64,000 bases of DNA from Longimicrobiales bacterium (GTDB lineage Bacteria; Gemmatimonadota; Gemmatimonadetes; Longimicrobiales; Gaopeijiaceae). The DNA lies in NCBI GenBank assembly GCA_965116905.1, contig OZ220732.1:1344001-1408000 (forward strand), in the 5' to 3' direction. Shown here piece by piece: positions 1,703 through 60,571 of this stretch (positions are counted from its first letter, which is position 1; every line of letters begins with the position of its first letter). Under the pieces are notes generated by a model. The model did not search any database. It was not told where the DNA came from and saw nothing but the letters and a program-made list of their open reading frames with translations. A program made the position numbers and the translations under genes.

Positions 1703-1741
1703 TGTAAATCAAAATTTACACGATGTCATGTTTACCTTACA
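1703..1741. repeat. 39-bp double-palindrome element, copy 1
   Basis: TGTAAATCAAAATTTACA-cga-TGTCATGTTTACCTTACA; AT-rich island in intergenic DNA. Confidence 0.85.
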
Positions 1742-1926
1742 TATTCGGTTGTCGGGGCCGCACTCTTCGTTGCTCCTCGGGCCCGTAGCGCTGCTACTGG
1801 CCCTTCGTCGCGCCTTGCCGGCCCGGCGCCTCGCCGCTCTCGGTGCTCGGGCGGCTTCATCCGCGGACTAGTCCGCACGGCCTGGCCGCCCGTGGACGCA
1901 ATCCCCTCGGCAATCGAGCGGCGCTG

Positions 1927-2607
1927 GTGCTGATCCTCTTCGACATCGACGGCACCCTCACGACCGGCGGCCCCGCCCGGTCGGCGTTTCAACTCGCGCT
2001 GGAAGAGACCTACGGGACGGCCGGGCCCATCGCCACCCACGACTTCTCGGGCAAGACCGACCCCCGCATCACGCGGGAACTCCTGACCGCCGCCGGCTGC
2101 CGCCCCCGCGACATCGAGGCCGGGCTGCCGCGCTTCTGGACGCGCTACCTGTCCGAACTGGAGGCGCGGATCGACGGACATCCCGTGACCGTGCTGCCCG
2201 GGGTCCACGAGCTGCTCACCGCACTCGCAGCGCGCGACGACGTGCATCTCGGCCTCGTTACCGGCAACGTGGCGGGCGGCGCCCGGCTGAAGCTGCTTTC
2301 CGCGCGGCTCTGGCATCACTTCCCGGTCGGCGGTTTCGGTTCCGACAACGAGGTGCGCAACGAGCTGCCCCGCGTCGCGCTTGACCGGGCATCGGCGCAC
2401 TGGGGCCGGGCGTTCCGGGGAACCGATGCCGTGATTGTCGGCGACACCCCCCGCGACGTGGCGTGCGGGAAGGCGGTCGGCGCGGCCACCGTGGCGGTCG
2501 CGACGGGCCGGTTCTCGCGCGCCCAGCTGCTCGACACGGCCGCGGACCGCGTCCTGTCCGACCTGGCGGACACCGCGGCGGCCATCGAAGCACTGACCGG
2601 CCTCTAG
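1927..2607 (+). CDS. HAD-superfamily hydrolase (phosphatase-like)
   Basis: LFDIDGTL motif I, LVTGN motif II, IVGDTPRD motif IV; GTG start inferred. Confidence 0.88.
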   Translation: MLILFDIDGTLTTGGPARSAFQLALEETYGTAGPIATHDFSGKTDPRITRELLTAAGCRPRDIEAGLPRFWTRYLSELEARIDGHPVTVLPGVHELLTALAARDDVHLGLVTGNVAGGARLKLLSARLWHHFPVGGFGSDNEVRNELPRVALDRASAHWGRAFRGTDAVIVGDTPRDVACGKAVGAATVAVATGRFSRAQLLDTAADRVLSDLADTAAAIEALTGL

Positions 2608-2690
2608 CAGCCTTTCGTCGCGGCCGCCCCTGCGGGCGCGCCACGGCGATGTCGACATCCTCACCGGGCCCGCGGCACCCATCTTCGCCC

Positions 2691-2757
2691 CGTTACCCGC
2701 GCGTTACACGGCCAATCCTGAAGCGTTACACGCCCAATCCTGACGCGTTACACGCCC
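2691..2757 (+). promoter_or_regulatory. Phased direct repeats upstream of TonB receptor (possible OmpR/PhoB-type boxes)
   Basis: CGTTAC at 2691, 2702, 2724, 2746 (11/22/22-bp spacing); 22-bp unit GCGTTACACGSCCAATCCTGAM. Confidence 0.5.
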
Positions 2758-2884
2758 TCCCTACCTTCCGTTCGACAACCGGACGGAGCCCTGTGCTCCC
2801 GTGCACATCGGCAACCGCAAGGACCGCCTTGGACAACCTTGAACTCCGCTAGCCAGCGTCGCTCAACCCTCTCACGGAGATACG

Positions 2885-8802: not shown

Positions 8803-8803
8803 C

Positions 8804-9578: not shown

Positions 9579-10154
9579 CTAGAGGGACTGCAGCACGTTC
9601 AGCGCCCGGGCCAGCGACCACTCGCCCACCACCGGCGGGGGCCAGGCGTTTGCGCTGTGAGCATGCACAAGGGCATCGGCTTCGGCGCGGGCCCGCTCCG
9701 CCGTCTTCCCGTCGACGTGCCCGGCGTCCTCCGCTTCGCTCAGCTCGTCCTCATCCAAAACCCGGACCGGGCCCCACCGCGGGACCCAGACGTCGAGACA
9801 CAGATCCGTGGTCGACCAGGTGCGGGCGTCGACGAAATCCACCGGTGTGAGGACATTGGCGTACGTTCCCGTATGGGCGCCGTTGTTGCGGAAGAAAAGG
9901 CCGATATCGTGCCACTTGCCCGGGAACGTGAACCATATGACGGGCGAACGCGGCTCCAGAATCGTGAGATCATCGACGATAATCGGGTGCTCGATGGGCG
10001 TGCGGGGCTGAAATGTGACGACCATCTCCGGATTGCTGTCCAGCACAAAAAGCCGATACGTATCTTCCGGCTTCCCGATCCGCCGGTAGTAGATGTCGAC
10101 GAAGTCGCCGTCCCTGGGCAGGATGAGCCGCTGGCTCGTCGCGGAGCCCGTCAC
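9579..10154 (-). CDS. DUF402-family protein
   Basis: WFTFPGKWHDIG, GTYANVLTP, TDLCLDVWV, VLDEDEL motifs; GTGA coupling to upstream gene. Confidence 0.8.
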   Translation of the reverse strand: MTGSATSQRLILPRDGDFVDIYYRRIGKPEDTYRLFVLDSNPEMVVTFQPRTPIEHPIIVDDLTILEPRSPVIWFTFPGKWHDIGLFFRNNGAHTGTYANVLTPVDFVDARTWSTTDLCLDVWVPRWGPVRVLDEDELSEAEDAGHVDGKTAERARAEADALVHAHSANAWPPPVVGEWSLARALNVLQSL

Positions 10155-10480
10155 GAGTCGTCGAACTGTTCGGGGTTGGCGCGTTCGACGAACACGTCCA
10201 TGATCCCGCCGCACACCGCGGGGCTCCATGTGGTGAAGTCGTCGGTCAGGTCGACGCGAACCGTCCTCGGCGGCCCGCCCGCAAGCAGTTCATCGGCGGC
10301 CGCAAGCACTTCACCTTCGCCGCAACCTCCGCCGACGGTGCCGGCGATCACGCCGTCCCGCCCGACCAGCATCCGTGCGCCGGTCTTGCGCGGTGTCGAT
10401 CCCCTGGCGGCCACGATCGTCGCCAGTACGGCGGGCTCGCGCAGCGCCGCCAGCTGGCCCAGCAGCTCCTTTTCGTCCAA
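10151..10480 (-). CDS. Stand-alone XdhC/CoxI N-terminal domain protein
   Basis: LATIV..RGSTPRKTGARMLV, GTVGGGCGE, CGGIMDVFVE; AGGAGG before TTG start. Confidence 0.88.
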   Translation of the reverse strand: MDEKELLGQLAALREPAVLATIVAARGSTPRKTGARMLVGRDGVIAGTVGGGCGEGEVLAAADELLAGGPPRTVRVDLTDDFTTWSPAVCGGIMDVFVERANPEQFDDS

Positions 10481-10523
10481 CTCGGTCCTCCTGTGTCCGC
10501 TCGGCTCCCGGCAGCGTGACGTG

Positions 10524-11972
10524 CTACCGGTCCCCGAAAAAGCGCTCGACGACCCGTTCCTTCTCCACGAGGGGCGCTCCCGTGCCCCCCGCGTGAAACA
10601 GTATGATCTCCGCCACTACCGACACCGCGATCTCAGCCGGGGTCTGACCACCCAGATCCAGACCGACCGGGGCTCGCACCTGGCGCATTTCGGCGGTCGT
10701 GAAGCCCTCCCGAGCGAGCTGCTCGTGGGTTGCACGCACCCGGCGGCGACTCCCGATCATACCGATGTAGCCCGGCGGCGCGGGCATGCGCAACAGGCGC
10801 ACCAGACACTCGTAGTCGAAGCTGTGCCCACGCGTGACCAGCACGATGTGGTCGGAAGGGCCCAGATCAATGTCCGCGAAGGGGTCGTGGAAGTCGATCA
10901 CGCGCACCTCGGAGGCCTCCGGAAAACGCTCCGCCGCGGCAAACTCCGGGCGATCGTCCAGCACTTCGACCCGCATCCCCAGCATCGCAGCCATCCGGGA
11001 CAGGGGAATGGCGATATGGCCCGCACCCACGATCACCATCCGCGCGGGCGGCCCGTGCAGTTCGATGTAGACCGTGGCCGTGGCCGCGCGGTCGCCGTCC
11101 GCGTAACCAAAGTCCCGGCTGAGGGCGCCGCGGGATTCCCTTGGGGGGAAGAGCGCCGGCACCGCCGCGGCAACCGCCTCGTCAAGCGCCGGGCTTCCGA
11201 GTGTGCCCCCGTGTCGCCTGCCGGAGAGCCACCACCGCCGCCCGATCAGCGCGGGGTCGGGCGCGCCGGTCACCACCGCGGTGTATATGCGTTCGCCCCG
11301 GCCGAGCGCCTCCAGGACCCGGGCGGCTACATGCGCGGCGGACGGATTCATGCGGATGCGCCGCCGGTATCGCTCGGGCGTGTCGATATCCTCCACGGCG
11401 CCCGGATCCGCGACCTCGACCTCGATCACCCTGCCGGGGTCACGCCTCACCACCGTGCGCGCCCCGTCCGGCAGGCCGGCCTCGTGGAACTCGTGCGCGA
11501 TGCTCATGTCGGCCAGCACGGGATGCCCGCGCCGATCCCCGTAGCGGGGCAGCACAATGGCGGGACGGGCGGCGCGCCACGCGGCGATCAGCGCCTCAAC
11601 GGTTGCGGGCGCGACCGCGGGGTTGTCGACCGGGGTGAAGACCGTCGCGGCGGGCGGATCCGCACCCTGCGCCAGCCACGCGAGCCCGGCCCGCAGCGAG
11701 CCGATCTGGCCACCCGCGCCGTCCGGGTTGACCACGAGGCGCGCACCCGCCCGAGCCGCCTCGTCGGCCACGCCGCCCGTGCGGGCAGGTGCGACAACGA
11801 CGACGGGGTCACAACCGGCGCTGGTCAGCGTCTGCACCAGCCGTCCCACGAACGTCATCCCGTCCGCGTCCAGGAGCGCCTTCGCGGTGCCCATCCGCGA
11901 CGATCCGCCCGCGGCGAGCACGATGCCGGCTACACGCGGCTCCGGTTCCGGCCGCACGCCTGCCGCGCTCAT
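10524..11972 (-). CDS. MocA-like molybdenum cofactor nucleotidyltransferase fused to XdhC Rossmann domain
   Basis: N-half IVLAAGGSSRMG..KALL, GHPVL, DIDTPE; C-half IVGAGHIA, TRGHSFD, YIGMIGSRRR, PVGLDLGGQTPAEIAVS. Confidence 0.88.
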   Translation of the reverse strand: MSAAGVRPEPEPRVAGIVLAAGGSSRMGTAKALLDADGMTFVGRLVQTLTSAGCDPVVVVAPARTGGVADEAARAGARLVVNPDGAGGQIGSLRAGLAWLAQGADPPAATVFTPVDNPAVAPATVEALIAAWRAARPAIVLPRYGDRRGHPVLADMSIAHEFHEAGLPDGARTVVRRDPGRVIEVEVADPGAVEDIDTPERYRRRIRMNPSAAHVAARVLEALGRGERIYTAVVTGAPDPALIGRRWWLSGRRHGGTLGSPALDEAVAAAVPALFPPRESRGALSRDFGYADGDRAATATVYIELHGPPARMVIVGAGHIAIPLSRMAAMLGMRVEVLDDRPEFAAAERFPEASEVRVIDFHDPFADIDLGPSDHIVLVTRGHSFDYECLVRLLRMPAPPGYIGMIGSRRRVRATHEQLAREGFTTAEMRQVRAPVGLDLGGQTPAEIAVSVVAEIILFHAGGTGAPLVEKERVVERFFGDR

Positions 11973-17756: not shown

Positions 17757-18329
17757 TCAGCCTTCCTCCGAGTCCATCGCGGCCCCGATCGCGCGGGCAT
17801 ACCAGTCGAGTGTCTCGATGAAGCCGGCAAAGGACTTTTCGTAGTGCGGCGCCGCGGGTTCGCCGTCTTCGCCGAAGCTGCCCGACACCCTGGAGACGTG
17901 CATTCCGGCCACCGGCAGGGCCTTGAGGCGGAGGAACAGGAGCTGCAGGTGGTTGTGCACCTGGACACCGCCAAAACCCCCCGCGGACACGGTCACGATT
18001 CCGACCGGCTTGCGGAACCACTCGCCGTAGATGTAGTCGAGCGCGTTCTTGAGAACGCCCGGGATGGAGCCGTTGTATTCGGGACTGACGACCACGACGG
18101 CGTCGGCGGCCCTCACCGCCTCCGAGAAGCGGACCAGCCCCGGCGGCGGGTCGTCCCGCATGTGCAGGCGCTCCTCCATGATCGGCAGGTCCAGGCTGCG
18201 AAGGTCCAGCAGCGGCGCGTCGGCCCCCGCCTGTCCGAGCCGGTCGCCGGCGAAGCGTGCCACCCTGATGGACTGGCGGCCGCGGCGTACCGAGCCCACG
18301 AGAACCGGGATGCGCAGCGGACGGTTCAC
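17757..18329 (-). CDS. NADPH-dependent FMN reductase
   Basis: GSVRRGRQS, SPEYNGSIPGVLKNALD, KPVGIV; GTGA-coupled to upstream ligase. Confidence 0.9.
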   Translation of the reverse strand: MNRPLRIPVLVGSVRRGRQSIRVARFAGDRLGQAGADAPLLDLRSLDLPIMEERLHMRDDPPPGLVRFSEAVRAADAVVVVSPEYNGSIPGVLKNALDYIYGEWFRKPVGIVTVSAGGFGGVQVHNHLQLLFLRLKALPVAGMHVSRVSGSFGEDGEPAAPHYEKSFAGFIETLDWYARAIGAAMDSEEG

Positions 18330-19918
18330 CGGGGACGGCCGGACGCGCCGGTCGTGGTCGGAGCACCCGAATCCCGGCCGGATGCGCGCACCTCCCGTTT
18401 CAGCGCTCCGCGGTCCACCTTGCCCAGGTGCGTGCGCGGCAGGTCGGCCAGGATATGGATCGCGCGCGGGTGCTTGTAGGACTCCAGCCGGGCGGCGACG
18501 TGGGCGCGGAGGCCGGCGACGTTTCCGCGGGGGTCGTCCTCGCGGGGCACAAGCACCACGAACGCCTCCGGAACCGTCAGTCCGTCTTCGGTCTCGATCC
18601 CCACCACCGCCGCCTCCTTTACACGCGGGTGTTGCAGCAGGCACTCCTCGGCCTCCCCGGGCGAAAACCACTTCCCCGAGACCTTGAGCAGGTCGTCGGC
18701 GCGTCCCTGGTAGCTGAAGCACCCGTCCTGGTCGCGCGTCATCATGTCGCCCGAAATGTACCACTCCCCGGCGAACGCGTGGCGCGTCGCTTCCGGGTGC
18801 TGCCAGTAGCCGTGCGCGAGGGACCCGCCCCGCACCCGCATCCGGCCGACTTCGCCGGTCTCCACCTCGTTGCCGTCGTCGTCGCAGAGCAGGACCTCGA
18901 ATCCGGGAACCGCGCGGCCGAGCGTCCCGGGCCGCACCTCGCCGGGCCGATTCGAGATGAAGACGTGCCACATCTCGGCCGTGCCGAGCCCATCGAGGAG
19001 TTCGACGCCGAAGGTGTCGTCCCAGCGGTGGTGCAGGGTGGGCGGCAGGGGTTCGCCGGCCGAGGTGGACAGCCGCAGACAGCTCAGGTCCCGGGCGTGC
19101 GCGTCCGGGTGGGCGACCATGTGATTCACCATGGTAGGGACGTTGACCAGGATCGTGGGGCGGTGGCGGGCGATCTGCGTGAACAGCTCGTCGGCGGTGC
19201 AGCGCTCCGGAAAGAGCACGGCCGAGGCGCCTGCGGCGAGGGGAAAAAAGAGGTTGGAGCCGGTGGCGTACCCGAAGTAGAGCTTGGGCACCGAGAGGGT
19301 GATGTCCTCGGGCGCGTAGCGGAGAACGCCCTTCGCGTAGCATTCGGTGGTGTTGGCAAACGACGCGTGGCTCTGGATCACGCCCTTGGGGCGACCGGTC
19401 GTGCCGCCCGAGAACAGCCAGATCGCGGGGTCGTCGAAATGTGAAGTAAAGTTGACATAATGTAAACTGGAGTTGTCAACAAGAGCATCGTCGTCGGGGG
19501 TGCCGAGGACGAGCAGACGGGGTGGATTGGGCGCGCCGCGCGCCGCCTCCAGGAAGGTCGCCGCGTGGTCCGAGTGGATTACGGCGGCTGTCGCGCGCGT
19601 GTAGTCGTACATGTCGCGGACTCGCGACGCGCCCAGGTAGCAGTTCACCATCACGCCGACCGCGCCCATCTTGAGCGCACCGAAGAGCGCGGCGGGGAAG
19701 TCCGGAACGTCGGGGAGACCCACGAGCACGCGGTCTCCGGGACGAACGCCGGCCGCTTCCAGGGCGTTGGCAAACTGGTTGGCGCGGGCCTGCAGCGCCG
19801 CGTAGCTGACGGTGCCGTCGCGTGTCCGCAGGGCGATCCGCTCACCGAGCCCCTCCCGGATCCGGTCGTCCAGGAAGTAGTCGGCGATGTTGAAGGGGTC
19901 GGGAGGGTCGAAGCGCAT
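18326..19918 (-). CDS. Benzoate/2-aminobenzoate-CoA ligase family
   Basis: WLFSGGTTGRPKG, KLYFGYATG, SAGE, DGLGTAE, GRADDLLKVSG, LPRTHLGK; divergent from anthraniloyl-CoA cluster. Confidence 0.9.
   Translation of the reverse strand: MRFDPPDPFNIADYFLDDRIREGLGERIALRTRDGTVSYAALQARANQFANALEAAGVRPGDRVLVGLPDVPDFPAALFGALKMGAVGVMVNCYLGASRVRDMYDYTRATAAVIHSDHAATFLEAARGAPNPPRLLVLGTPDDDALVDNSSLHYVNFTSHFDDPAIWLFSGGTTGRPKGVIQSHASFANTTECYAKGVLRYAPEDITLSVPKLYFGYATGSNLFFPLAAGASAVLFPERCTADELFTQIARHRPTILVNVPTMVNHMVAHPDAHARDLSCLRLSTSAGEPLPPTLHHRWDDTFGVELLDGLGTAEMWHVFISNRPGEVRPGTLGRAVPGFEVLLCDDDGNEVETGEVGRMRVRGGSLAHGYWQHPEATRHAFAGEWYISGDMMTRDQDGCFSYQGRADDLLKVSGKWFSPGEAEECLLQHPRVKEAAVVGIETEDGLTVPEAFVVLVPREDDPRGNVAGLRAHVAARLESYKHPRAIHILADLPRTHLGKVDRGALKREVRASGRDSGAPTTTGASGRPR
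19440..19478. repeat. 39-bp double-palindrome element, copy 2 (inside CDS)
   Basis: TGTGAAGTAAAGTTGACA-taa-TGTAAACTGGAGTTGTCA; read in-frame on the minus strand as VDNSSLHYVNFTSH. Confidence 0.85.
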
Positions 19919-40294: not shown

Positions 40295-40333
40295 TGTCAA
40301 CTAAAGGTTACGTATTGTAATGTTTACTTTACA
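40295..40333. repeat. 39-bp double-palindrome element, copy 3 (contains the amidase ATG)
   Basis: TGTCAACTAAAGGTTACG-tat-TGTAATGTTTACTTTACA. Confidence 0.8.
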
Positions 40334-43617: not shown

Positions 43618-43817
43618 GGTCTCACCCCTGCACGTTCCAGGAACACACGCAACCGCTTGACGAGACCCTTTCCGCACTCGGGACGGGGATGGGGTCTATG
43701 CACGGTCTCGACCTCTCCGTTCAAGACGATGATCACGGATGATCCCCGTCTCTCGTGAACCTCGGCACCCAGAGCGCGGAACATATCAAGGATGGTCTGA
43801 CACGGCGATCTTGCCAT
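43614..43817 (-). pseudogene. hicA: HicA-family toxin, apparently lacking its N-terminus
   Basis: FRALGAEVHERRGS..HRPHPRPE..FLERAGVRP; ATGA overlap with hicB. Confidence 0.7.
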
Positions 43818-43894
43818 GGCGACACCTGAACCGTAGGCTGGCCTCACGGGCACGGGAATGTTCCGTTGCGCCCACTATGGCACGGGAGGCGCTC

Positions 43895-45118
43895 ATGAAG
43901 CCGCATCCTCTCCTGGCCTTGATGTCCCTGGCCGCGTTTGCCTGCGACCAGGGCCAGGAATCTGCGCCCTTCCCCACCACCCAGGTCCGCGACAGCGCGG
44001 GAATCCGGATCGTCGAGAACCCGCGTCCGTCGGACAGGTCGCGGCTCCCCTGGCGGATCGGTCCGGAGCCCGCCGTGTCCATCGGTGCCGTGGAGGGCGA
44101 CGAGCCCTACATGCTCGTCGGGGCCATCGACGCCACCAGGCTAAGCGACGGTCGCATCGTCGTTGTGAATGGCGGAACGAGCGAGCTGCGCGTGTTCGAC
44201 GCAGTGGGGGATCACGTCGCAACCTGGGGCGGCCGCGGAGAGGGTCCGGGCGAATTCGGAGGCCTCTACGCGGTCGAGCGATGGCCGGGAAACTCGATCA
44301 TCGCCTGGTACACAACGCGCCTGGGGATTTCGGCCTTCGACGCGCAGGGGAACTACGGCCGCACGTGGGAACTCGTGCAGGAGGGGTCCATCCCGCTAAT
44401 GCTTGGCTTCCGGCCCGAGTACGCGATGCACGACGGCTCGATTCTCGCGGTTCACATGCCCGAGTCTTCGGATACCGTCGTCGTTCAGCTCAGGGACGGT
44501 GAGGGAAGGATACGGGGTTCGCTAGGGACGCACAGGGTCGCCGAACCGTATATCCATTCCCCGGGAACCGACCAATCACTGCTGCTCGAGAAGACCTTCG
44601 GGCACGAACCGGTCTGGACACCGTGGGGAGGCCTGGTCGTTATCGCCCACACGGGTCGGTACGAACTGAGGGCCTTCGCGGCGGACGGTTCTCTGGCGCG
44701 GATCGTCAGGCGCGACCATGTGCCCCGTTCTCCGACCCCGGCCCAGATCGAGGCTTACATCGAGGGACAACTCGCCTGGACCACCGACGTGGCCGAGAGC
44801 CAGAGAGCGCGGTGGCGTGAGGGATACGAGTCGGCGCCGGTAGCGGAGCACCTTCCGGCGTTCGAGTCGGTCATGTCCGACGCGGCGGGCCACCTTTGGG
44901 TTGCGGAATACGAGTTCTCAACGGCGGCTCGGGGCACATACGAGGAGCGACCGCCCCGACTCTGGACGGTTTTCGATCCGGAAGGCAGGGTGTTGGGCAA
45001 TGTCGAGACGCCGGAGGACCTGTGGATCCACGAAATCGGCGAAGACTACATCCTTGGCGTGGTTCTCGACGAACTCAATGTGGAGTATGTACAGGTGTGG
45101 ACGCTCGAGCGGCTATGA
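43895..45118 (+). CDS. 6-bladed beta-propeller lipoprotein, paralog 1
   Basis: Lipobox AFAC, RDSAGIRIVEN, GEGPGEF, WTVFDPEG, EIGEDY. Confidence 0.85.
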   Translation: MKPHPLLALMSLAAFACDQGQESAPFPTTQVRDSAGIRIVENPRPSDRSRLPWRIGPEPAVSIGAVEGDEPYMLVGAIDATRLSDGRIVVVNGGTSELRVFDAVGDHVATWGGRGEGPGEFGGLYAVERWPGNSIIAWYTTRLGISAFDAQGNYGRTWELVQEGSIPLMLGFRPEYAMHDGSILAVHMPESSDTVVVQLRDGEGRIRGSLGTHRVAEPYIHSPGTDQSLLLEKTFGHEPVWTPWGGLVVIAHTGRYELRAFAADGSLARIVRRDHVPRSPTPAQIEAYIEGQLAWTTDVAESQRARWREGYESAPVAEHLPAFESVMSDAAGHLWVAEYEFSTAARGTYEERPPRLWTVFDPEGRVLGNVETPEDLWIHEIGEDYILGVVLDELNVEYVQVWTLERL

Positions 45119-45207
45119 TCCGCGTTGCGGGAACGATGCTTCAGGATAGGCTGGCCCTTTGGGCGCGCGAATGTTCAGATGGGCCTAATTTCCACCGGGA
45201 GGCTTTT

Positions 45208-46410
45208 GTGAGGCTGAATCCTCTCCTTGGCCTGATGTCTGTGGCCGCGCTTGCCTGTGAGCAGGGCCGGCAATCACCGCTCTCTCTCCCCACTCAAACA
45301 CGCGACAGCGCGGGAATCCGGATCGTCGAGAACGCGCAGCCGCCGGAGGGGTCGCGGCTCTCGTGGCGGATCGGCCCGGAGCCCGCCGTCTCCATCGGAG
45401 CCGTTGAAGGCGACGAGCCCTACATGCTCGACGGGGCCATCGACGCCACCAGGCTGAGCGACGGACGCATCGTCGTCGCCAACGTGGGCACACAGGAGCT
45501 GCGGGTCTTCGACCCAGCGGGGAACCATCTCGCGACCTGGGGTGGCCAGGGGGAGGGGCCGGGGGAATTCACGGGTCTCTGGCAGGTGGAGCCGTGGCCG
45601 GGCGACTCGATCGTGGCCTGGAGTGCACCACGCTTCGGGATCTCGGTCTTCGATGGGCGGGGGACCTACGCTCGCACGTTCAGGCTGGTGCACGACGAAG
45701 CCACATCACCGATGCAGCGCTTCTGGCCACAGTCGACGACGCGAGACGGAGCCCTTCTCGCGGTGCACGGGCCCGAAGACGCGGACACAGTCGTCGTTCA
45801 ACTCAGAGACGGCCAAGGCGGAGTCCGGAGCTCGTTCGGCACCCATCCCGGCAGTGAGCCATACATCCACCGCGAGGGGGACCGGTCGATGCTGTTCTGG
45901 AAGATCTTCGGGCGGCAGTCGGTGTGGAGTCCGTGGAGCGACCTGACCGTCGTCGCCCACACCGGCCGCTACGAACTCACGGCGTTCGGTTCCGATGGGT
46001 CCCTGAGCCGGATCGTCAGGCGAGATCATATCCCGCGCGCGCCCTCGGAGACTGACGTCGAAGCCTTTGTCGAGTGGCAGATCGGGCGCAGCAGGCGCAG
46101 CTCCGAGAGCGAAATGGCCGAGTCGCGACGGCGGTATCGGAGCGTGCCGGTCGCCGAGCACTTTCCGGCTTTCGAGTCGATCTTGAGCGATGCCCGCAAC
46201 CACCTCTGGGTTGAGGAATACGAGCTGCCGGGAGAAGAGGAGCCGGGAACGCTCTGGACCGTTTTCGATTCGGAAGGCCGCGCGCTGGGGTTCATGGAGA
46301 CGCCGGAGGGTCTGTGGATCCACGAGATCGGAGAGGACTATATCCTCGGCCGTGCCCTCGACGAACTCAATGTGGAGTACGTGCAGGTGTGGACGCTGGA
46401 GCGTTCCTAG
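45208..46410 (+). CDS. 6-bladed beta-propeller lipoprotein, paralog 2
   Basis: Same motifs; GGGAGG RBS before GTG; very similar to paralog 1. Confidence 0.85.
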   Translation: MRLNPLLGLMSVAALACEQGRQSPLSLPTQTRDSAGIRIVENAQPPEGSRLSWRIGPEPAVSIGAVEGDEPYMLDGAIDATRLSDGRIVVANVGTQELRVFDPAGNHLATWGGQGEGPGEFTGLWQVEPWPGDSIVAWSAPRFGISVFDGRGTYARTFRLVHDEATSPMQRFWPQSTTRDGALLAVHGPEDADTVVVQLRDGQGGVRSSFGTHPGSEPYIHREGDRSMLFWKIFGRQSVWSPWSDLTVVAHTGRYELTAFGSDGSLSRIVRRDHIPRAPSETDVEAFVEWQIGRSRRSSESEMAESRRRYRSVPVAEHFPAFESILSDARNHLWVEEYELPGEEEPGTLWTVFDSEGRALGFMETPEGLWIHEIGEDYILGRALDELNVEYVQVWTLERS

Positions 46411-46431
46411 GGCCGTCGGGGTAGGAGACGT

Positions 46432-47640
46432 ATGAGGATTCGCATTGTCGGTGTGATGCTCGCGCTCAGCGCGTTGGCCTGCCAGCAGGACCCCGGCACT
46501 CGTACCGCGCTGGCCAGTGCGGCCCGCGACAGCGCCGGCGTCCGGATCGTCGAGAACGCGCGGCCCCCGGACGGTTCGCGCCTGGGATGGACAATCGGAC
46601 CTGAACCTGCGGTTTCGATCGGTGTTTTCGAAGGCGAAGAGCCGTACATGCTGCACTGGGCCGACGATGCGACGCGGCTCCGGGACGGTCGGATTGTCGT
46701 GGCGAACAATGGGAGCAACGAACTGAGGGTGTTCGACGCAGACGGAACTCACGTGGCTACATGGGGCAGAGATGGGGAGGGGCCGTCGGACTTTGCTGCT
46801 CTCACGGAGGTAGATGCCTGGCCGGGCGACTCCATCATAGCCTGGTACACGGGTGCATTCGGAATGGCCGTTTACGACTCGGACGGGACTTTCGGGCGCA
46901 CGTTTGTGCTGCAGAGCCAGGAGAACGTCAATGGGCTCAGACCCCGACTTGACGCCGCGCGCGCGGATGGCACGTTGCTGTCGACAAGGGACGTGGAGGA
47001 CCTGGATTCAGCCATCGTAGAGGTATGGACGAGCCAAGGGGCGCTGTCCGCATCCATGGGAGCGCATCCCGCCGAGGAGATACTGATCACGGGCGAGGGA
47101 CGCGGACGAACGCTGAGCAGACTCGCGTACAGCCGCCAACTTGTCACAGGCCTGTGGGGCGACCTGGTTGTCATCAGTCACAACAGCCGCTACGAGATCA
47201 TGGCGTACCGCGTGGACGGCGTTCTCGACCGGGTCGTCAGGCGGGACCATTTGCTTCGATCCCCAACCGAGGCCGACCGCGAGCCCTTTGTCGAAGAACA
47301 GCTGTCGCTGCTTGAGGGCGCCGACATTCCCGAGTTCGTGGAGCGGGCAGCACGCCAGGAGTTCGAAACAACGCCCTTGGCCGACTTCTTCCCTGCCTTC
47401 GTGTCGGTCCTGGGCGACGCCGCCGGCCACCTCTGGTTGGAGGAGTACGAGTTCCCGCGAGAGAATCGCCCCGGCACGCTATGGACCGTGTTCGATCCCG
47501 AGGGAGACGCTCTCGGGTTTGTGGAGACGGCGGAGGGATTGGAGATCTACGAGATTGGTGAGGACTACATTCTGGGCCGGGTCAAGAACGAACTCGGCGT
47601 GGAGTCGATTCAGCTCTGGCCGCTGGACCGGTCCGGCTGA
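46432..47640 (+). CDS. 6-bladed beta-propeller lipoprotein, paralog 3
   Basis: ALAC lipobox, RDSAGVRIVEN, EIGEDY; AGGAG RBS. Confidence 0.85.
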   Translation: MRIRIVGVMLALSALACQQDPGTRTALASAARDSAGVRIVENARPPDGSRLGWTIGPEPAVSIGVFEGEEPYMLHWADDATRLRDGRIVVANNGSNELRVFDADGTHVATWGRDGEGPSDFAALTEVDAWPGDSIIAWYTGAFGMAVYDSDGTFGRTFVLQSQENVNGLRPRLDAARADGTLLSTRDVEDLDSAIVEVWTSQGALSASMGAHPAEEILITGEGRGRTLSRLAYSRQLVTGLWGDLVVISHNSRYEIMAYRVDGVLDRVVRRDHLLRSPTEADREPFVEEQLSLLEGADIPEFVERAARQEFETTPLADFFPAFVSVLGDAAGHLWLEEYEFPRENRPGTLWTVFDPEGDALGFVETAEGLEIYEIGEDYILGRVKNELGVESIQLWPLDRSG

Positions 47641-47681
47641 CGCCGGGAACAGCCCTCCAGGAGAGAAGGGACACAGGTTCG

Positions 47682-49034
47682 ATGCGTGGCCATTGCTCCC
47701 CGAGCACCCTGGCAACTCGTGGACTGCCAGTACTCGCAGGGTTGCTGCTGGTGTTCGCCGGATGCCAGGAGGGCCAGGCTCCAACGGCCGGTGCTTTCGT
47801 GGTCCGCGACAGCGCTGGCATCGAGATCGTCGAGAGTATGGCACCGGCCTGGGACGGAGATGGTTGGACCGTGTCGGGGACGCCGAGCCTGGTCATCGGT
47901 CAGATGGGGGGAGACGAGCGCTACCTGTTCGGGGAAGTGGCCGGCGCCGTCATGCTCCGCGATGGGCGAATCGCGGTGCTCGACGGGCAGAGCGCACTGA
48001 TCCGCGTGTACTCGCCCGAGGGCGAGCACATCGAGGACTGGGGAGGACAAGGGGAAGGCCCGGGAGAGTTCACCTCCGCCCAAACCATTTCGTCGTATCG
48101 GGGCGACTCGATCCTCGTGAGCGAGTTTGTCGCACGCCGGCTTGTGATCTTCGACGACCGGGGACGGCTCGGGAGAAGCATCGTCCCGGAGATGAGGATG
48201 TCATTTGCAACCGAACAGCGCAGGCGCATGGCAGAAGGGGACCGCTCGACGGTTCCCGGGTGGAGCTGCTGCAGACTCTGGGGCTCGCTCCGGACCGGCG
48301 CCTTCCTCCTCTCCTACCCCGAGATGATCCCCAACGAGGGGAGCGGGACAAAGAGGGCGTCGGTCACGGCGGCCATCATGCCGGATGCCGGCGGGGCGGC
48401 CGAATCCGTCGGCGTCTTCGGGGGGATGACCTATGAGCTCGGCCTGCAGGGATCGCGGTCCCGATTGCAGCTCCAACCGTGGTTCAACATGGTCCCGGGA
48501 CCCGATGGGTACTATGCCACGCAGGGAGACTCCTATTCGATTGATGCATACGACCTGGGCGGCAACCTAAGGCGAATCATCCGGCTCGCCCGCGAAACCC
48601 GACCCGTCACCGATGAGATCAAGGCGGCCTACGAAGCCGGACTTCGAGATCGGCTCATGGCGCCCGGCGCGTTTATCGACGCCGACTCTCCCGAGGAAAT
48701 GCTGGACATATTGCTCGCCGGTCCCTATCCCCCACATCTCCCCACGTTCTTTCAGCTCCTCGTGGACCCGGATGGCAACATCTGGGCCGGTCAGCGTCGG
48801 TACGGTGCGGGTGATTCCGGCGCGGGCGGCACCGACGACGGCACCGTGAACGACGACTCCCAGCCGTCCGAAATGAACGAGTTCATCGTCTTCGGAGCCG
48901 ACGGGCGGTACCTCGGCATGGTCGAGCTGACAGCCGATTTTCAGGTGCTTCTTATCGGCACGGACTTCATTCTCGGGGCGCTGAGGGATGACCTCGGCGT
49001 AGCCTGCGTCCACGTTTACCGGATTGAGAAGTAG
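47682..49034 (+). CDS. 6-bladed beta-propeller lipoprotein, paralog 4 (divergent)
   Basis: FAGC lipobox, RDSAGIEIVES, GEGPGEF. Confidence 0.82.
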   Translation: MRGHCSPSTLATRGLPVLAGLLLVFAGCQEGQAPTAGAFVVRDSAGIEIVESMAPAWDGDGWTVSGTPSLVIGQMGGDERYLFGEVAGAVMLRDGRIAVLDGQSALIRVYSPEGEHIEDWGGQGEGPGEFTSAQTISSYRGDSILVSEFVARRLVIFDDRGRLGRSIVPEMRMSFATEQRRRMAEGDRSTVPGWSCCRLWGSLRTGAFLLSYPEMIPNEGSGTKRASVTAAIMPDAGGAAESVGVFGGMTYELGLQGSRSRLQLQPWFNMVPGPDGYYATQGDSYSIDAYDLGGNLRRIIRLARETRPVTDEIKAAYEAGLRDRLMAPGAFIDADSPEEMLDILLAGPYPPHLPTFFQLLVDPDGNIWAGQRRYGAGDSGAGGTDDGTVNDDSQPSEMNEFIVFGADGRYLGMVELTADFQVLLIGTDFILGALRDDLGVACVHVYRIEK

Positions 49035-49054
49035 GGACTACTGCGTCAGCGCGT

Positions 49055-49093
49055 TGTCAACTACACTTTACATGATGTGACGTAAAGTTTACA
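49055..49093. repeat. 39-bp double-palindrome element, copy 4 (between convergent genes)
   Basis: TGTCAACTACACTTTACA-tga-TGTGACGTAAAGTTTACA. Confidence 0.85.
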
Positions 49094-49108
49094 CACAGGC
49101 CGCAAAAT

Positions 49109-49145
49109 CCTTGCAAATCCAGCACGCCATACCGGATTTGCAAGG
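49109..49145. terminator. Hairpin between convergent genes (possible bidirectional terminator)
   Basis: CCTTGCAAATCC-N13-GGATTTGCAAGG perfect 12-bp inverted repeat; only a short T-tract on the minus strand. Confidence 0.5.
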
Positions 49146-49177
49146 TTCGCTCGTCTTGACCACATCCCGCCCGCCCC

Positions 49178-50944
49178 CTAGACCTCCCCCCGCCTTGCCG
49201 CCCACACCGCGTAGTGACTCGCTCTCGCCGCGAACGCCATGTAGGTCAGCGACGGGTTCTGGCAGCCGGACGACGCCATCGACGCGCCGTCGATCACGAA
49301 CAGGTTGGGCACGTCCCACGCCTGGTTGTGGGCGTTGAGCACGGAAGTGGCCGGGTCGCGGCCCATGCGCGCCGTGCCCATCTCGTGGATGGTCAGCCCG
49401 GGCGGGGTCATCTCGGTGTCGATCGTGATGTCGCGGCCGCCGCCGGCCTCGAGCATTTCGGCGGCCTGCAGGGCGGCGTCGCGCATCATAGCGCGCTCGT
49501 TGTCGCTCCAGGTGCAGCTGATGCGCAGCGTGGGGATTCCCCACTTGTCGACCTGCTCGGGGTCGAGGGCCACGTGGTTCTCCTCGCGCGGGAGGCACTC
49601 GCCGAATCCCTCGATTCCGAACGACCACGGCCCCGGGCGGAGCAGGTCGCTCTTGAAATCCCCTCCAAAACCCGGCATCGACATGCCCCGCCCCCATCCT
49701 TCCCTTCTCGCCGAGCCCTGGTACCCGTACCCGCGCACGAAATCGGGCGAAGGCTCGGTGACATTGCGGAAACGGGCGATGTAGATGCCGTTGGGGCGCC
49801 GGCCACGAGTAGTGCGGTCCTCCCAGCCGGGGAAGGTCGCGCGCGCGCCGACGTCCATCGTGTGGTCCATGAGGTATTTGCCGAGCACGCCGCTTGAGTT
49901 GGCGAGACCGTCTGGGAAGTCGGCCGACATCGAGTTGAGCAGAATGCGCGTCGATTCCAGCGCGGAGGCGCCGAGGAAGACGGTGCGCGCGCGGTACTCG
50001 GACTCTTCGTGGGTCTCGGCGTCGATCACGCGGACCCCGCTGACCCGCCCGGCCCTCGGATCCCAGACGACCTCGGCGACGACGCTGTTGGGGCGCAGGG
50101 TCATGCGGCCGGTGGCCTCGGCGGCGGGGAGGGTGGCGTTGAGCGAGCTGAAGTAGCTGCGGGTACGGCATCCCCGGTGGCAGGGGCCGCAGTAGTGGCA
50201 GGCGCGCCGGCCCTTGTGATCGCGCGTGAGGACGGCGGTGCGGCCGATCGTCATGCGCCGGGTGCCGCCGAACGCGCTGTCGATCACGCCCGCCACATGC
50301 TCCTCGACGCAGGACATCTGCATCGGCGGCAGGAAGACCCCGTCCGGAACCTGCGGCAGCCCCTCCGCGCGCCCGCTGATGCCGACGAACGCTTCGACGT
50401 GGTCGTACCAGGGCGCCAGGTCGGCGTAGCGGATGGGCCAGTCGACCCCGTATCCCTCACGCGCGTTGGCCTCGAAGTCCAGGTCCGACAGCCGGTAGCA
50501 CTGCCGCGCCCACATGATCGACCGGCCGCCCACCTGCCGTCCGCGGATCCACAGAAAGGGCTTGTCCGGATCGGTCGTGTACGGGTTCTCGATGTCGTTG
50601 ACGAAGAACTTGCGGCCCACTTCGTCGCAGGCGTAGCACTGGCCCTGGACCGGCTGCTCGGCCGCCACCGCCTTGCGGTCGTTCCAGCCGCGGTACGGCA
50701 TCTGGTACGTGGGGAGGTGCTCGGCGTAGTCGCGTTCGGGCACGATCATCGGCCCCGCCTCGAGGACGAGCACGTTGGCGCCCAGTTCGGTCAGCTCCTT
50801 GGCGGCCCACCCGCCCGACATCCCCGAGCCGACGATGATCGCGTCGTACTCCTGGCGGCGCGGACGGATGTGGAACGGCCGCACGCGAAAGAGGTCCCGG
50901 CGCGCGACGGTCAGCGGCCGGCCAGCCGGTTGCCCGTCGGTCAT
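49178..50944 (-). CDS. GMC oxidoreductase flavoprotein (glycoside 3-dehydrogenase-like)
   Basis: IVGSGMSGGWAAKEL, GGRSIMW, CHYCGPC, GKYLMDH, IHEMGTARMG, CQNPSLT. Confidence 0.92.
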   Translation of the reverse strand: MTDGQPAGRPLTVARRDLFRVRPFHIRPRRQEYDAIIVGSGMSGGWAAKELTELGANVLVLEAGPMIVPERDYAEHLPTYQMPYRGWNDRKAVAAEQPVQGQCYACDEVGRKFFVNDIENPYTTDPDKPFLWIRGRQVGGRSIMWARQCYRLSDLDFEANAREGYGVDWPIRYADLAPWYDHVEAFVGISGRAEGLPQVPDGVFLPPMQMSCVEEHVAGVIDSAFGGTRRMTIGRTAVLTRDHKGRRACHYCGPCHRGCRTRSYFSSLNATLPAAEATGRMTLRPNSVVAEVVWDPRAGRVSGVRVIDAETHEESEYRARTVFLGASALESTRILLNSMSADFPDGLANSSGVLGKYLMDHTMDVGARATFPGWEDRTTRGRRPNGIYIARFRNVTEPSPDFVRGYGYQGSARREGWGRGMSMPGFGGDFKSDLLRPGPWSFGIEGFGECLPREENHVALDPEQVDKWGIPTLRISCTWSDNERAMMRDAALQAAEMLEAGGGRDITIDTEMTPPGLTIHEMGTARMGRDPATSVLNAHNQAWDVPNLFVIDGASMASSGCQNPSLTYMAFAARASHYAVWAARRGEV

Positions 50945-57180: not shown

Positions 57181-57222
57181 GGGTGGAAGCCGTGTGGCGC
57201 GGGTTACGCCGACGGAATCATG

Positions 57223-57609: not shown

Positions 57610-57628
57610 GGCTCCACTCCCGCGGCTC

Positions 57629-58453
57629 TCAGACCGGTGCCTCCCCCTGGATCGTGACCCGGTAGCCCGACCTTGTCGCCGGCCAGTAGTCCCAGATCGC
57701 GTGATGCTGGGCGGAGCGGTTGTCCCAGAACGCGATCGAATTCCTGCGCCAGCGGAAGCGGCACTGGAAATCCGGGCGCGCGACGTGCTCGTACAGCAGA
57801 GCCAGAATCCCGCGGCTCTCCGCCGGCGGCAGCCCCACGATGTACTGCGTGAACATCGGGTTCACGAAGAGTGCCTTGCGGCCGGTGACCGGATGCGTGC
57901 GCACGACCGGATGCTCCGCCGACGGATAGCTGCGGCCGCCGTCGTCACGGCCGATGATCCGGTTCGTTTCGCGATAGTACGGCCCGCCGTCGTGCACCGC
58001 GGTCAGGCCGTCGAGAAAGGTCCGCATCCGCTCCGAGAGCGCCTCGTAGGCGGCGTACATGTTCGCGAAGAGCGTGTCGCCCCCGGTCTCGGGCACCGTG
58101 TGCAGCCGCAGAATCGACCCCATCGGGGGCAGCGGATCGCACGACACGTCGGAGTGCCACTGCTCACCCGCGACCCGCCGCGAGTTCTCGTCCGCGTGGA
58201 TGGGCATGACCTCGGGGTGGCCGTCGACCCCGGGGTCGTTCGGGTGCGCGACCAGCTCCCCGAAGCGAGCGCCGAGTTCCTTCTGGCTCTCGATCGAGAT
58301 GTCCTGATCGCGGAAGAAGATGACGCAGTGATCCATGAGGGCGTCGTGAATCAGCTGGAAGTCGGCATCGGTGATGTCGTCGAGGTCCAGACCATGGACT
58401 TCGGCGCCGATCACCGGCGTGACGGGTCTGACCTGCGGGCTTGTTGTGCTCAT
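57629..58453 (-). CDS. TauD/TfdA-family 2-oxoglutarate-dependent dioxygenase
   Basis: IGAEV.GLDL, WHSDVS, GGDTLF, HPVVRTHPVTG, WDNRSAQH. Confidence 0.93.
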   Translation of the reverse strand: MSTTSPQVRPVTPVIGAEVHGLDLDDITDADFQLIHDALMDHCVIFFRDQDISIESQKELGARFGELVAHPNDPGVDGHPEVMPIHADENSRRVAGEQWHSDVSCDPLPPMGSILRLHTVPETGGDTLFANMYAAYEALSERMRTFLDGLTAVHDGGPYYRETNRIIGRDDGGRSYPSAEHPVVRTHPVTGRKALFVNPMFTQYIVGLPPAESRGILALLYEHVARPDFQCRFRWRRNSIAFWDNRSAQHHAIWDYWPATRSGYRVTIQGEAPV

Positions 58454-58597
58454 GCGCCGAATATCGACGGACTCGCCGCAGTGGGCAACGACCGGCATCG
58501 TGCTGGAAATCACCCCGGCGCCGGGCTAGCATTGTGGAAGCAGCCCGACCCACACGCCCGGTCACTTGCCACAGGCCCGGAGGAGACCACGCCAACG

Positions 58598-60529
58598 ATG
58601 TCAGTTGAACGTCTGATGAGAGCCGCGATCGCATTTCTGCTGACCCTCGGCGCATGGGCCTGCGACTCACCCGGTGCGCCTGCGGGAGGCTCGCCCTGGG
58701 AGCGCACCCGCGAGGCCGCGAACGGTGGCGACCCGGCCCACCTGGCCTGGCTCGAGGACAACTACGACAAGAGCGAGCACATGGTCTCCATGCGGGACGG
58801 CGCACAGCTGTACACGATCGTCTACACGCCCCGCTTCACGACCGAGCCGGTGCCGGTCATGCTGTTCCGCACACCGTACTCGATCGCACCGTACGAGCCG
58901 GATCAGTACCGCAACCCGCTCGGGCCGTCCGCCGAGTTCGACCGGGCGGGCTACGTGTTCGTTTTCCAGGACGTGCGCGGCAAGTTCCGGTCCGAGGGCG
59001 ACTTCGAGGTCATCCGCCCGCTGGCGCCCAAGCCCAAAGGGCCGACGACGGTCGACGAGAGTACCGACAACCACGACGCGATCGACTGGGCGCTCGCGAA
59101 CGTGGAGGGCCACAACGGCAGGGTGGGGCAGTGGGGGATTTCCTACCCGGGCTGGCAGACCGTCATGGGGATGGTGGATGCGCATCCGGCGCTCGCCGCG
59201 TCGTCTCCTCAAGCTTCCCCCTCCGACATGTTCATAGGGGACGACTGGCACCACAACGGCGCCTTCAGAGTCATGTACGCCTTCTCCTGGCTCGCCAGAA
59301 ACGCACGCAGGCGAGATGCGCCCACCGACGCGCGGGAGGGTCCCTTCGACTACGGCACCGACTCCGGCTACGACTTCTTTCTGGCCGCGGGGTCGGCGGC
59401 GAACATCAACGACCTGTACTTCCATGGCGATGTTCCGGCCTGGAACGATTTCATCGAGCACGACACGTACGACGAATACTGGCAGCGGCAGAACGCGCTA
59501 CCGCACCTGCGCGGCATCCGGCACCCGATCCTGAACGTCGCGGGTTGGTTCGACACCGAGGATTTCTACGGGCCCATGTCGATCTACAGGACGATCGAGG
59601 CGGAGAATCCGGGCACCGAGAACACGCTCGTGGCGGGTCCGTGGCTGCATGGCGGGTGGTCGCGCATGCTCGGCGACAACCTGGGGTGCATCGAGTTTGT
59701 CGACGAGACTTCGGTGACCTTCCAGCGGGAGGTTCAGTTCCCGTTCTTCGAGCATCATCTGCGGGGGGTGGAGGGTTGGGCGGCGCCTGAAGCGTTCGTC
59801 TTCGAGACCGGGTCGAATGTGTGGCGCACGCACGAGACCTGGCCGCCGGCGGGCGTCGAGCCGGTGTCACTTTACCTGGCCGACGATCGTGGCCTTTCCT
59901 TCGATCCGCCGTCCGGGCCGGGTGGCTCGGACAGCTATGTCAGCGACCCGAACAATCCCGTTCCATTCTCGGCAGAGGAGCGGACGACGCTCGGGCATCT
60001 CTGGAAGGTCGAGGATCAGCGCTTCGCGTCGGCGCGGCGGGACGTGCTGGTGTACGAGTCGGAGCCGCTCGCGGAGGACCTGACCATCGCGGGACCGATC
60101 CTGGCGGACATCTTCGTATCGACGACCGGCACCGATTCCGACTGGATCGTGAAGGTGATCGACGTCTATCCGGACGATGCCCCGGACTCGCCCTTCTGCG
60201 ACGTGCCGATGGGTGGCTACCAGATGCACCTGGCGGGCGAGATCATGCGCGGCCGCTTCCGCAACAGCCTGGAGCACCCGGAGGCGATGGTGTCGGGCGA
60301 AGTCACGCCGATCCACATCGACCTGAGGGACCGCTACCACACCTTCAAGGCCGGCCACCGGATCATGGTGCACGTGCAGAGTTCGTGGTTCCCCGCGTAC
60401 GACCGCAATCCGCAGCAGTTCGTCAACACGTACACCGCCAGTCCCGAGGACTATGTGGTGGCGTCGCAGACGGTGCACCGGGGCCCGAACTACCCATCGC
60501 GGGTGACGTTCGGGGTGGTGAGGGACTGA
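58598..60529 (+). CDS. CocE/NonD-family hydrolase (alpha-amino acid ester hydrolase-like lipoprotein)
   Basis: MRDG..L, RTPY, QDVRG, GISYPG nucleophile, GWFDTED, GPWLHG; AWAC lipobox; GGAGG RBS. Confidence 0.92.
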   Translation: MSVERLMRAAIAFLLTLGAWACDSPGAPAGGSPWERTREAANGGDPAHLAWLEDNYDKSEHMVSMRDGAQLYTIVYTPRFTTEPVPVMLFRTPYSIAPYEPDQYRNPLGPSAEFDRAGYVFVFQDVRGKFRSEGDFEVIRPLAPKPKGPTTVDESTDNHDAIDWALANVEGHNGRVGQWGISYPGWQTVMGMVDAHPALAASSPQASPSDMFIGDDWHHNGAFRVMYAFSWLARNARRRDAPTDAREGPFDYGTDSGYDFFLAAGSAANINDLYFHGDVPAWNDFIEHDTYDEYWQRQNALPHLRGIRHPILNVAGWFDTEDFYGPMSIYRTIEAENPGTENTLVAGPWLHGGWSRMLGDNLGCIEFVDETSVTFQREVQFPFFEHHLRGVEGWAAPEAFVFETGSNVWRTHETWPPAGVEPVSLYLADDRGLSFDPPSGPGGSDSYVSDPNNPVPFSAEERTTLGHLWKVEDQRFASARRDVLVYESEPLAEDLTIAGPILADIFVSTTGTDSDWIVKVIDVYPDDAPDSPFCDVPMGGYQMHLAGEIMRGRFRNSLEHPEAMVSGEVTPIHIDLRDRYHTFKAGHRIMVHVQSSWFPAYDRNPQQFVNTYTASPEDYVVASQTVHRGPNYPSRVTFGVVRD

Positions 60530-60532
60530 AAC

Positions 60533-60571
60533 TGTAAACTCCGGTTGACATGATGTGAACTGGAGTTGACA
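60533..60571. repeat. 39-bp double-palindrome element, copy 5
   Basis: TGTAAACTCCGGTTGACA-tga-TGTGAACTGGAGTTGACA, 3 nt after the CocE stop. Confidence 0.85.

Follow-up and report, generated by a model that had tools for sequence, protein, structure and literature searches.

A 39-base signal that recurs along the chromosomes of one sponge-associated bacterial genus is very probably the tandem operator of a CylR2-type repressor, an XRE-PBP_like protein, as judged from sequence comparison. In the reading favored here, to which a probability of roughly 0.45 is assigned, this local repressor may have been co-opted in the genus as a sequence-specific, position-independent chromosome-binding protein. 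The signal is present in 11–299 copies per genome in 38 of 44 genomes of the genus and in 0–6 copies per genome in 369 other genomes of the class. Elsewhere, the XRE repressor likely controls only its own molybdate-uptake genes; in this genus, it likely has a chromosome-wide, promoter-independent job. A local repressor appears here in the course of becoming a chromosome-wide DNA-binding system, and extant genomes still show the stages: distant homologs have a single box, the related genus g14 has one tandem operator plus a few strays, and the genus itself has tens to 299 copies, with sensor loss in the site-densest clade and decay in G003, G011, and G016.

The window, a 64-kb stretch of the studied genome (G000; 4.207 Mb, 67.7% GC), contains five copies of the signal, each comprising two 18-bp boxes separated by 3 bp. 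The coordinates and placements given for these copies in an earlier sequence-only reading were borne out, and the pattern TGT-N12-ACA-N3-TGT-N12-ACA is exact in three of the five copies and carries one mismatch in the other two. The features of the window are as follows.

1625–1869, no strand assigned: MITE carrier, 245 bp, with 16-bp terminal inverted repeats; preceded by a CTAG, right end slightly decayed
1703–1741, no strand assigned: double box copy 1, 52.5 bits, in the middle of the MITE
18326–19918, minus strand: benzoate-CoA ligase family gene, host of copy 2 (TIGR02262, 461 bits, over the cut-off)
19440–19478, no strand assigned: double box copy 2, 55.9 bits, an indel-free site in CoA ligase codons 147–160
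40295–40333, no strand assigned: double box copy 3, 56.3 bits, between divergent genes
40320–41912, plus strand: amidase gene with a predicted start codon, its first codons shared with copy 3
49055–49093, no strand assigned: double box copy 4, 55.5 bits, between convergent genes
60533–60571, no strand assigned: double box copy 5, 53.4 bits, 4 bp beyond the stop codon of a CocE/NonD hydrolase gene

Copy 2 is kept in 20 of 21 orthologs from the genus and in none of six outgroup orthologs. Copy 3, which overlaps the start predicted for the amidase, is conserved in G001 and G005, and copy 5 is conserved in G005. Copy 4 was not found in the syntenic stretches of G001 and G005, which have a different upstream gene. 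The whole window gave no matches in Rfam or tRNA scans. As had been noted from the letters, no candidate cognate protein is seen in the window; the likely binder is encoded outside it.

The geometry of the signal is strict. Among exact matches in G000, 16 have the 3-bp spacer, with 0–1 at each of the 15 other spacers from 0 to 15 bp, and 16 have an inner length of 12, with none at 9–11 or 13–15; the 3-bp spacer, and with it the 21-bp box spacing, is strict over this range. An iterated matrix trained on the sites themselves recovers 38 sites of at least 30 bits in G000 and none between 22 and 30 bits, and the maximum in three 100-bp block shuffles never exceeds 14 bits, in agreement with the predicted genome-wide excess over shuffled sequence. 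Single boxes above 12 bits are paired at 3 bp in 72 of 99 cases in G000 and in 90 of 100 cases in 366 kb of G019. Recognition as a hairpin or single strand was considered and rejected: complementarity within boxes is 0.547 versus 0.532 in shuffled sequence, and across the center 0.531 versus 0.527. Viral contigs scanned with the strict pattern gave no matches.

The candidate binder is encoded by an XRE-PBP_like fusion gene (G000, 977773–978885), the first gene of the modABC operon, and its protein combines the Pfam domains HTH_3 and PBP_like. A search profile built from small XREs that adjoin the boxes in other phyla, and whose closest solved relatives are CylR2 chains, has one strong match per genome; in G000, the XRE-PBP_like protein is the sole CylR2-type XRE helix-turn-helix (profile E 6.6e-29). 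Co-occurrence with a DNA-binding protein, a check that had been suggested, is seen for this locus: the gene and an upstream double box of 35–60 bits are present in 38 of 38 site-positive genomes of the genus, and the gene is absent in five of the six site-free genomes; in the sixth (G023), the recognition helix is changed and the box is missing. These genomes are kin, such that the correlation between gene and sites reflects a single gain and a small number of losses. In g14, which has 0–6 sites per genome, the operator of the XRE-PBP_like locus accounts for 6 of 16 fetched sites. Outside Gemmatimonadota, 10 of the 12 matches listed from a GTDB scan, representing about four independent lineages, have the 18+3+18 box on the 5′ side of either a small XRE gene or an operon of membrane protein and XRE, and a single box lies upstream of five distant homologs (37–40% identity; three of them near-identical to one another). 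The array of sites for a dimer of dimers that was proposed from the letters is supported, with binding itself a prediction from sequence. The binder is likely a regulator of molybdate transport rather than a known segregation or recombination factor, as that proposal had it. The TyrR lead was not sustained: the consensus TGTAAA-N6-TTTACA of TyrR/PhhR fits some boxes, but a TyrR-type HTH (TIGR04381) is absent from 41 of 41 genomes, with E. coli as a positive control.

The XRE-PBP_like gene alone is not sufficient for many sites, as seen in G003, G060, and g14. G003 keeps the gene and its operator, yet its smc, valS, and ligase sites are lost, and two residues of its recognition helix are different; in G060, where the helix is similar, there is one site. 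Conversely to the favored reading, G017 retains 20 sites, with the double box upstream of the XRE-PBP_like gene present, despite a frameshift in the HTH, which may be an artifact of assembly or reflect a loss that is recent.

A structural model of the XRE-PBP_like protein was based on alignments; a single-sequence fold (pLDDT 37) was set aside. The modeled homodimer has an ipSAE of 0.79, compared with 0.00 for the best control, and a pLDDT of at least 84, with at least 84% of contacts in agreement among runs; of the solved homodimers, 20 of 30 attain the mark used, compared with 1 of 23 single chains. In the model, the interface excludes the HTH, and the 25 best-resolved contacts lie outside the residues that are deleted in the site-densest clade. 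This clade (G140, G019, and G064, with 299, 241, and 88 sites, respectively, in genomes of 2.1–2.9 Mb) shares a 263-residue form of the protein that lacks approximately residues 230–321, in which half of the sensor domain is gone and the HTH is kept. The sensor domain is dispensable in this sense. In the proposed mechanism, each 18-bp box would be bound by one HTH pair, and two pairs would bind cooperatively on the same face of the DNA. A second dimer surface based on the linker and PBP_like domain would join the boxes or bridge distant sites. Given XRE-PBP_like as the binder, the chances of an architectural role appear about even. Every site would be weakly beneficial regardless of location, and sites would be gained and lost lineage by lineage because of this.

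Similar to the 39-mer system, small CylR2-type XRE repressors (HTH_3, PF01381) in other phyla have the box with its 3-bp pairing upstream of their gene. They differ in having one local operator per genome instead of 11–299 dispersed, partly intragenic copies, and they lack the added linker and PBP_like domain. The related regulator GakR has two 20-bp inverted repeats that are 2 bp apart (10.64898/2026.09.04.749385). In E. coli, SlmA/SBS and MatP/matS likewise use tens of dispersed sequence-specific sites. SlmA has a TetR transcription-factor fold, and its sites are mainly coding, with no apparent regulatory role (PMC3116907). The 39-mer sites are much longer, show no terminus exclusion or restriction, vary in number by lineage, and are partly MITE-borne, and their likely protein is still at its mod operator. 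The 39-mer sites do not fit parS, the 16-bp ParB site that clusters at oriC; two ordinary parS sites adjoin parB and dnaA, apart from the 39-mers. DNA uptake sequences (DUS/USS) build up in coding sequence by indel-free substitution at any position; the 39-mer differs in having tens to hundreds of copies, not thousands, and in being the palindromic operator of a putative cytoplasmic repressor. Tandem ARG boxes of ArgR have the 18+3+18 geometry, and the 39-mer consensus differs from the ARG box. A literature search found no report of the motif or its spread; 223 XRE motif clusters (PMC12565409, Table S1) may include the single box.

Copy number within the genus spans a range of about 27-fold, and several sites still present in sister genomes are lost from G000; because of this range and these losses, single sites appear to be dispensable. 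GC pressure was rejected as a driver of copy number: in 25 genomes, rho is 0.18 (p = 0.39). The tree used was built with FastTree. Two routes of spread are seen, carriage on the MITE and substitution in place. Sites in smc, valS, an AAA_27 ATPase gene, and the CoA ligase gene of the window differ from their orthologs by substitutions only, with no indels, and one in-gene site directly follows an intact Walker A lysine. The signal reaches the codons of essential genes, and 39-base sites have been made by point substitution within conserved proteins. Bases fixed in the motif diverge by 0–0.018, compared with 0.25–0.30 at free positions (18 close pairs, 11 sites); flanks align through to G000 for 12 of 109 sites in one comparison and 34 of 79 in another, the rest being dropped. 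Fourfold diversity is 0.22 within sites versus 0.45, and AT3 is 0.77 versus 0.10.

In the main rival reading, which we consider unlikely, the same binder spread its sites by non-adaptive drive. Tightly bound alleles would be shielded from replacement through homologous recombination, and perhaps from deletion, such that better-binding alleles would win gene conversion anywhere and operator-bearing MITEs would persist; a transcription factor would thus drive its own operator genome-wide, recoding even SMC and valyl-tRNA synthetase, although the cell would gain nothing from it. Complete position independence and the turnover among 11–299 copies are as expected from drive. In site-bearing orthologs, AT at fourfold sites falls with distance (0.40, 0.17, 0.15, 0.12, 0.10), and it is flat at 0.08–0.12 in site-free orthologs (four genes, related genomes), a gradient that could instead reflect selection on DNA shape. 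G016 lacks the XRE, and the five MITE copies listed from it are of an operator-less short form. However, an appreciable force is needed for the amino acid changes in SMC and ValRS, third-position divergence beside sites is not raised (0.21–0.24 versus 0.20), and a spread of this kind is not known for other tight repressors. Drive, if true, would form a mirror image to PRDM9 hotspot erosion and provide a new molecular-drive route in bacteria. How SlmA/MatP-like systems originate, and whether binding sites are gained by selection or by drive, can be tested with a single named protein and its named site.

Slightly less probable still is that the binder acts as a global transcription regulator tuned by oxyanions, combining promoter repression with intragenic roadblocks. 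Of the 38 sites in G000, 33 lie between genes or across gene ends, several lie over predicted starts, and sister species share many of the positions. A TT(G/T)ACA...17 bp...TAnnnT arrangement, resembling −35 and −10 elements, occurs in 23% of 193 dereplicated sites; the full arrangement is absent from the other 77%, and a bidirectional sigma-70 promoter was rejected as a general role, with none found in window positions 40100–49300. The gene-orientation classes (18 codirectional, 10 divergent, and 5 convergent) are as in intergenic DNA (expected 54–60%, 26–33%, and 13–14%), convergent sites included. Neighboring genes are functionally unrelated and are not aromatic amino acid genes, and mobile tyrosine recombinases are found near some sites. 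A molybdenum regulon does not fit, as only 1 of 38 sites is at modABC and none lies within 13 kb of any of the four molybdopterin oxidoreductase (PF00384) genes. The sensor deletion in the site-richest clade also speaks against this reading, and the earlier view that the sites form no ordinary regulon holds; placement ignores promoters, and neighbors share no function.

Site counts from ter to ori in quintiles are 22, 35, 32, 41, and 38 (p = 0.17; 168 sites in six chromosomes, with partial lists for G009 and G010), and no ori/ter or macrodomain bias was found in this set, unlike for SlmA or MatP. The likeness to parS, matS, and SlmA sites drawn by the sequence-only reading extends to dispersed, partly intragenic sites and not to ori/ter bias.

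It is very improbable that the sites are XDS-like arrays of XerD half-sites, at which XerD would act without recombining, for example, in SMC unloading. The XDS of Bacillus subtilis are dif-like sites in the terminus (PMC11840125, PMC11894783). The half-site equals the local dif XerD arm: the commonest half-sites with the spacer match that arm, TTATGT(A/C)AA(C/G)(T/C), seen in 38 of 41 genomes. However, T occupies 25–45% of half-sites where dif arms have A, the geometry is not 11-6-11, and the 39-mers are genome-wide, lack terminus enrichment, and follow the XRE gene in their distribution. Of 41 genomes, 40 have XerD, the stretch of alignment examined shows no diagnostic change that sets site-rich genomes apart from site-free ones, and equal geometry is found 5′ of XRE genes in other phyla.

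The weakest reading, that the sites are functionless relics of mobile elements, draws on young MITE insertions and on the share of sites that lie in MITE copies (G000, 8 of 38; G019, 22 of 47; another genome, 12 of 22), and it is already largely refuted by the 30 of 38 G000 sites without MITE arms, the conserved motif bases, and the indel-free alignment of four in-gene sites. Terminal repeats of 16 bp, 4-bp CTAG-type target duplications, and empty alleles all belong to the 245-bp carrier, and the insertion around copy 1 is missing in the G001 ortholog and in one contig (record 7) of run X3. The 39-mer itself has no target duplications, as first noted, and no other MITE hallmarks; a domesticated miniature element, also proposed, accounts for the eight carrier-borne sites of G000 and not for those built by substitution within genes. 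Among eight MITE copies, diversity is 0.40 within 10 bp of the site versus 0.03–0.06 in the distal arms; local hypermutation, which this gradient suggested, is not seen in unique DNA, and the gradient is attributed to constraint on the arms, which are conserved even between species.

All five 39-bp double boxes that the sequence-only reading had claimed in the window are real, and the pattern recurs throughout the 4.207-Mb chromosome (67.7% GC) of the genome containing it, G000. A site matrix, itself trained on sites, yields 38 matches of at least 30 bits in G000, nothing between 22 and 30 bits, and less than 14 bits in shuffled sequence, leaving a clean gap below the 38 sites. The 3-bp spacer, described as exact from the window, holds across the chromosome, with the exact pattern occurring 16 times at 3 bp vs 0–1 times at every other spacer from 0 to 15. 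The consensus comprises four half-sites, TGT(A/C)A(A/T)(C/G)(T/C), whose orientation alternates and which are bordered by short A-rich stretches; boxes are paired in 72 of 99 cases in G000 and in 90 of 100 in part of a relative, G019. TyrR, whose box the motif had been seen to resemble, is excluded. No hairpin covariation was found in the sites, and thus recognition likely occurs on double-stranded DNA. Four G000 sites (914958, 988475, 2867214, and 854468) are damaged: in one the spacer is 5 bp, in another a box carries a 2-bp insertion, and two have decayed; close relatives carry the last three in intact form.

This genome-wide expansion is real and genus-restricted. Allowing at most one mismatch to the pattern, 20 of 24 same-genus genomes contain 11–241 matches, and all 16 genomes from other families of the order contain none. 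Among 401 genomes drawn from across the class, 19–299 copies occur in 26 of 31 genus relatives, and the 369 genomes outside the genus have 0–6, with any copy at all in 23. Taken together, the two draws give 38 site-positive genomes among 44 from the genus; close strains are also contained in sponge metagenome runs. In the trees, the positive clade excludes G008 and G023 (no sites) but contains G011 and G016 (no sites) and G003 (11 sites), so sites were gained a single time and subsequently lost in some lineages.

The expanded 39-mer is likely the operator of an XRE regulator, judging from gene neighborhoods and co-occurrence. Among the matches listed from a strict-pattern scan of GTDB (80 of 121 loci), at least 12 are from other phyla, and in 10 of the 12 listed the box precedes either a small XRE gene or an operon of membrane-protein and XRE genes; these 10 come from about four lineages. 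Two loci, L121 (Acidobacteriaceae) and L124 (Bacteroidales), have perfect double boxes with further boxes close by and lack any XRE gene within 1.5 kb; these are possibly independent strays. A profile seeded by five XREs from the box-adjacent other-phyla loci has one strong match in G000, a 370-aa HTH_3 and PBP_like protein (977773–978885) that heads modABC, with a site (978942) 57 bp upstream. A gene of the GPP34 (Golgi phosphoprotein 3) family (L191:9145–9798; G000 979145–979798) adjoins this operon and operator, as it does in G017.

By profile search, the XRE-PBP_like gene is present in 19 of 20 positive relatives. In the twentieth, G017, the HTH carries two frameshifts (locus L239, G017:887541 onward), and the operator, the remaining gene, and at least 20 sites persist; the frameshifts reflect either assembly error or very recent loss. 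In a forward test, the gene was found in 17 of 17 further positive genomes and was missing from both further site-free genomes. A double box of 35–60 bits lies upstream of the XRE locus in all 38 positive genomes. In the related genus g14, 6 of 16 fetched sites are the XRE operator, the others being scattered intergenic strays, and five homologs (37–40% identity) have a single box 59–74 bp upstream. The closest solved relatives of the HTH are CylR2 proteins. GakR, a related regulator, recognizes a pair of 20-bp inverted repeats separated by 2 bp (bioRxiv 10.64898/2026.09.04.749385). The structure model (pLDDT 89.8) comprises the HTH, a β-rich linker, and a type II PBP/LysR-effector-like domain. 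A homodimer model scores 0.79 vs 0.00 for the best control (contact agreement and pLDDT each at least 84, the former in percent); 20 of 30 solved homodimers attain the score mark, as does 1 of 23 single chains. The model's contact surface is formed by the linker and PBP domain, with the HTH uninvolved. The model supports, rather than shows, a dimer. Three genomes in which sites are dense have in common the loss of ~92 residues from the sensor domain, with HTH and operator retained.

Sites have spread by two routes. The first is a MITE of 245 bp with 16-bp terminal repeats, 4-bp target duplications, and the site at its center:

Window 1625–1869, with about 50 further positions across G000: one MITE family, in forms of 245, 170, 97, and 41 bp

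In G000, 8 of the 38 sites are MITE-borne; in the part of G019 that was sampled, the figure is 22 of 47. Of five relatives, none has the insertions at trpB–trpA and atpH–atpA. The copy in the window is also polymorphic. The 170-bp form lacks the site and is the sole form among five displayed copies from G016, which has no XRE gene. MITE ends contain a DnaA-box-like 9-mer, and the arms are nearly identical across species. A search of G000 for a cognate transposase with matching ends found none. The copies in G003 resemble the G019 family across clades, which suggests transfer.

In the second route, sites formed in place by substitution and align without indels to site-free orthologs. Such sites occur in 20 of 21 genus orthologs of a CoA ligase, 19 of 24 of valS, 18 of 25 of smc (>25 bits, with two more at 22–25 bits), and 11 of 25 of an AAA_27 ATPase, the last limited to two related subclades. 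AT-rich codons have replaced GC-rich ones, altering some residues and leaving the Walker A motif intact. Between close species (18 pairs, 11 sites), divergence is 0–0.018 at motif-fixed bases vs 0.25–0.30 at free positions, and 4-fold diversity inside sites is half the gene background. Several sites kept by sisters have been lost in G000 through deletion, a 2-bp insertion, or decay.

The best reading, held tentatively at a probability of about 0.45, is that the mod repressor has been co-opted as a chromosome-binding protein that acts independently of position. The two boxes on one DNA face would be filled by HTH pairs, boxes would be coupled or loci bridged through a second dimer surface, and weak selection per site would account for in-place gain and turnover. 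The proposed working mode is like that of SlmA/MatP-type systems (PMC3116907), from which the sites differ in showing no macrodomain bias. The absence of this bias counts against co-option, and no ori–ter bias was found among 168 sites on six chromosomes. Also against it, G003 retains the XRE gene and has lost in-gene sites, with two otherwise nearly invariant residues of its recognition helix changed, and G060 and g14 carry the gene yet few sites. Binding-biased recombination drive, weakly hinted at by an AT gradient 15–45 bp outside the sites, is an unlikely alternative.

A global regulon is an improbable one. By gene calls made in this analysis, 5 G000 sites lie inside genes and 33 in gaps (18 codirectional, 10 divergent, 5 convergent), a split like that of intergenic DNA generally. 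Site-flanking genes show no common function, and no G000 site lies within 13 kb of a molybdopterin oxidoreductase gene. Two genes at window 10151–11972 look, on visual inspection, as if they encode accessory proteins of xanthine dehydrogenase or Moco-modifying proteins; they have no adjacent double box. At window 43739–49034 and 60637–61899, related lipoprotein genes, likely β-propellers, form a tandem array that varies among strains by whole-gene deletions. As far as literature searches reach, the expansion of this likely XRE operator is undescribed: no description of such dispersal was found in the literature searched, and no string in the main text of PMC12565409, on XRE motifs, matches the motif.

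That the sites are XerD arrays is very improbable: the half-site truly matches the XerD arm of dif (G000:2929977; likewise in 38 of 41 relatives), but geometry and distribution contradict this reading. XDS, the XerD sites of Bacillus subtilis, resemble dif and lie in the terminus (PMC11840125, PMC11894783). The match makes it possible that half of dif is bound by the repressor, or that XerD has weak affinity for the 39-bp sites. That the sites are mobile-element relics is the least credible of these accounts. Multicopy tyrosine recombinases occur at ten G000 loci, seven in one family of ~390 aa and one of phage-integrase type; two of another family lie near large repeat-rich surface-protein genes at 3.41–3.60 Mb.
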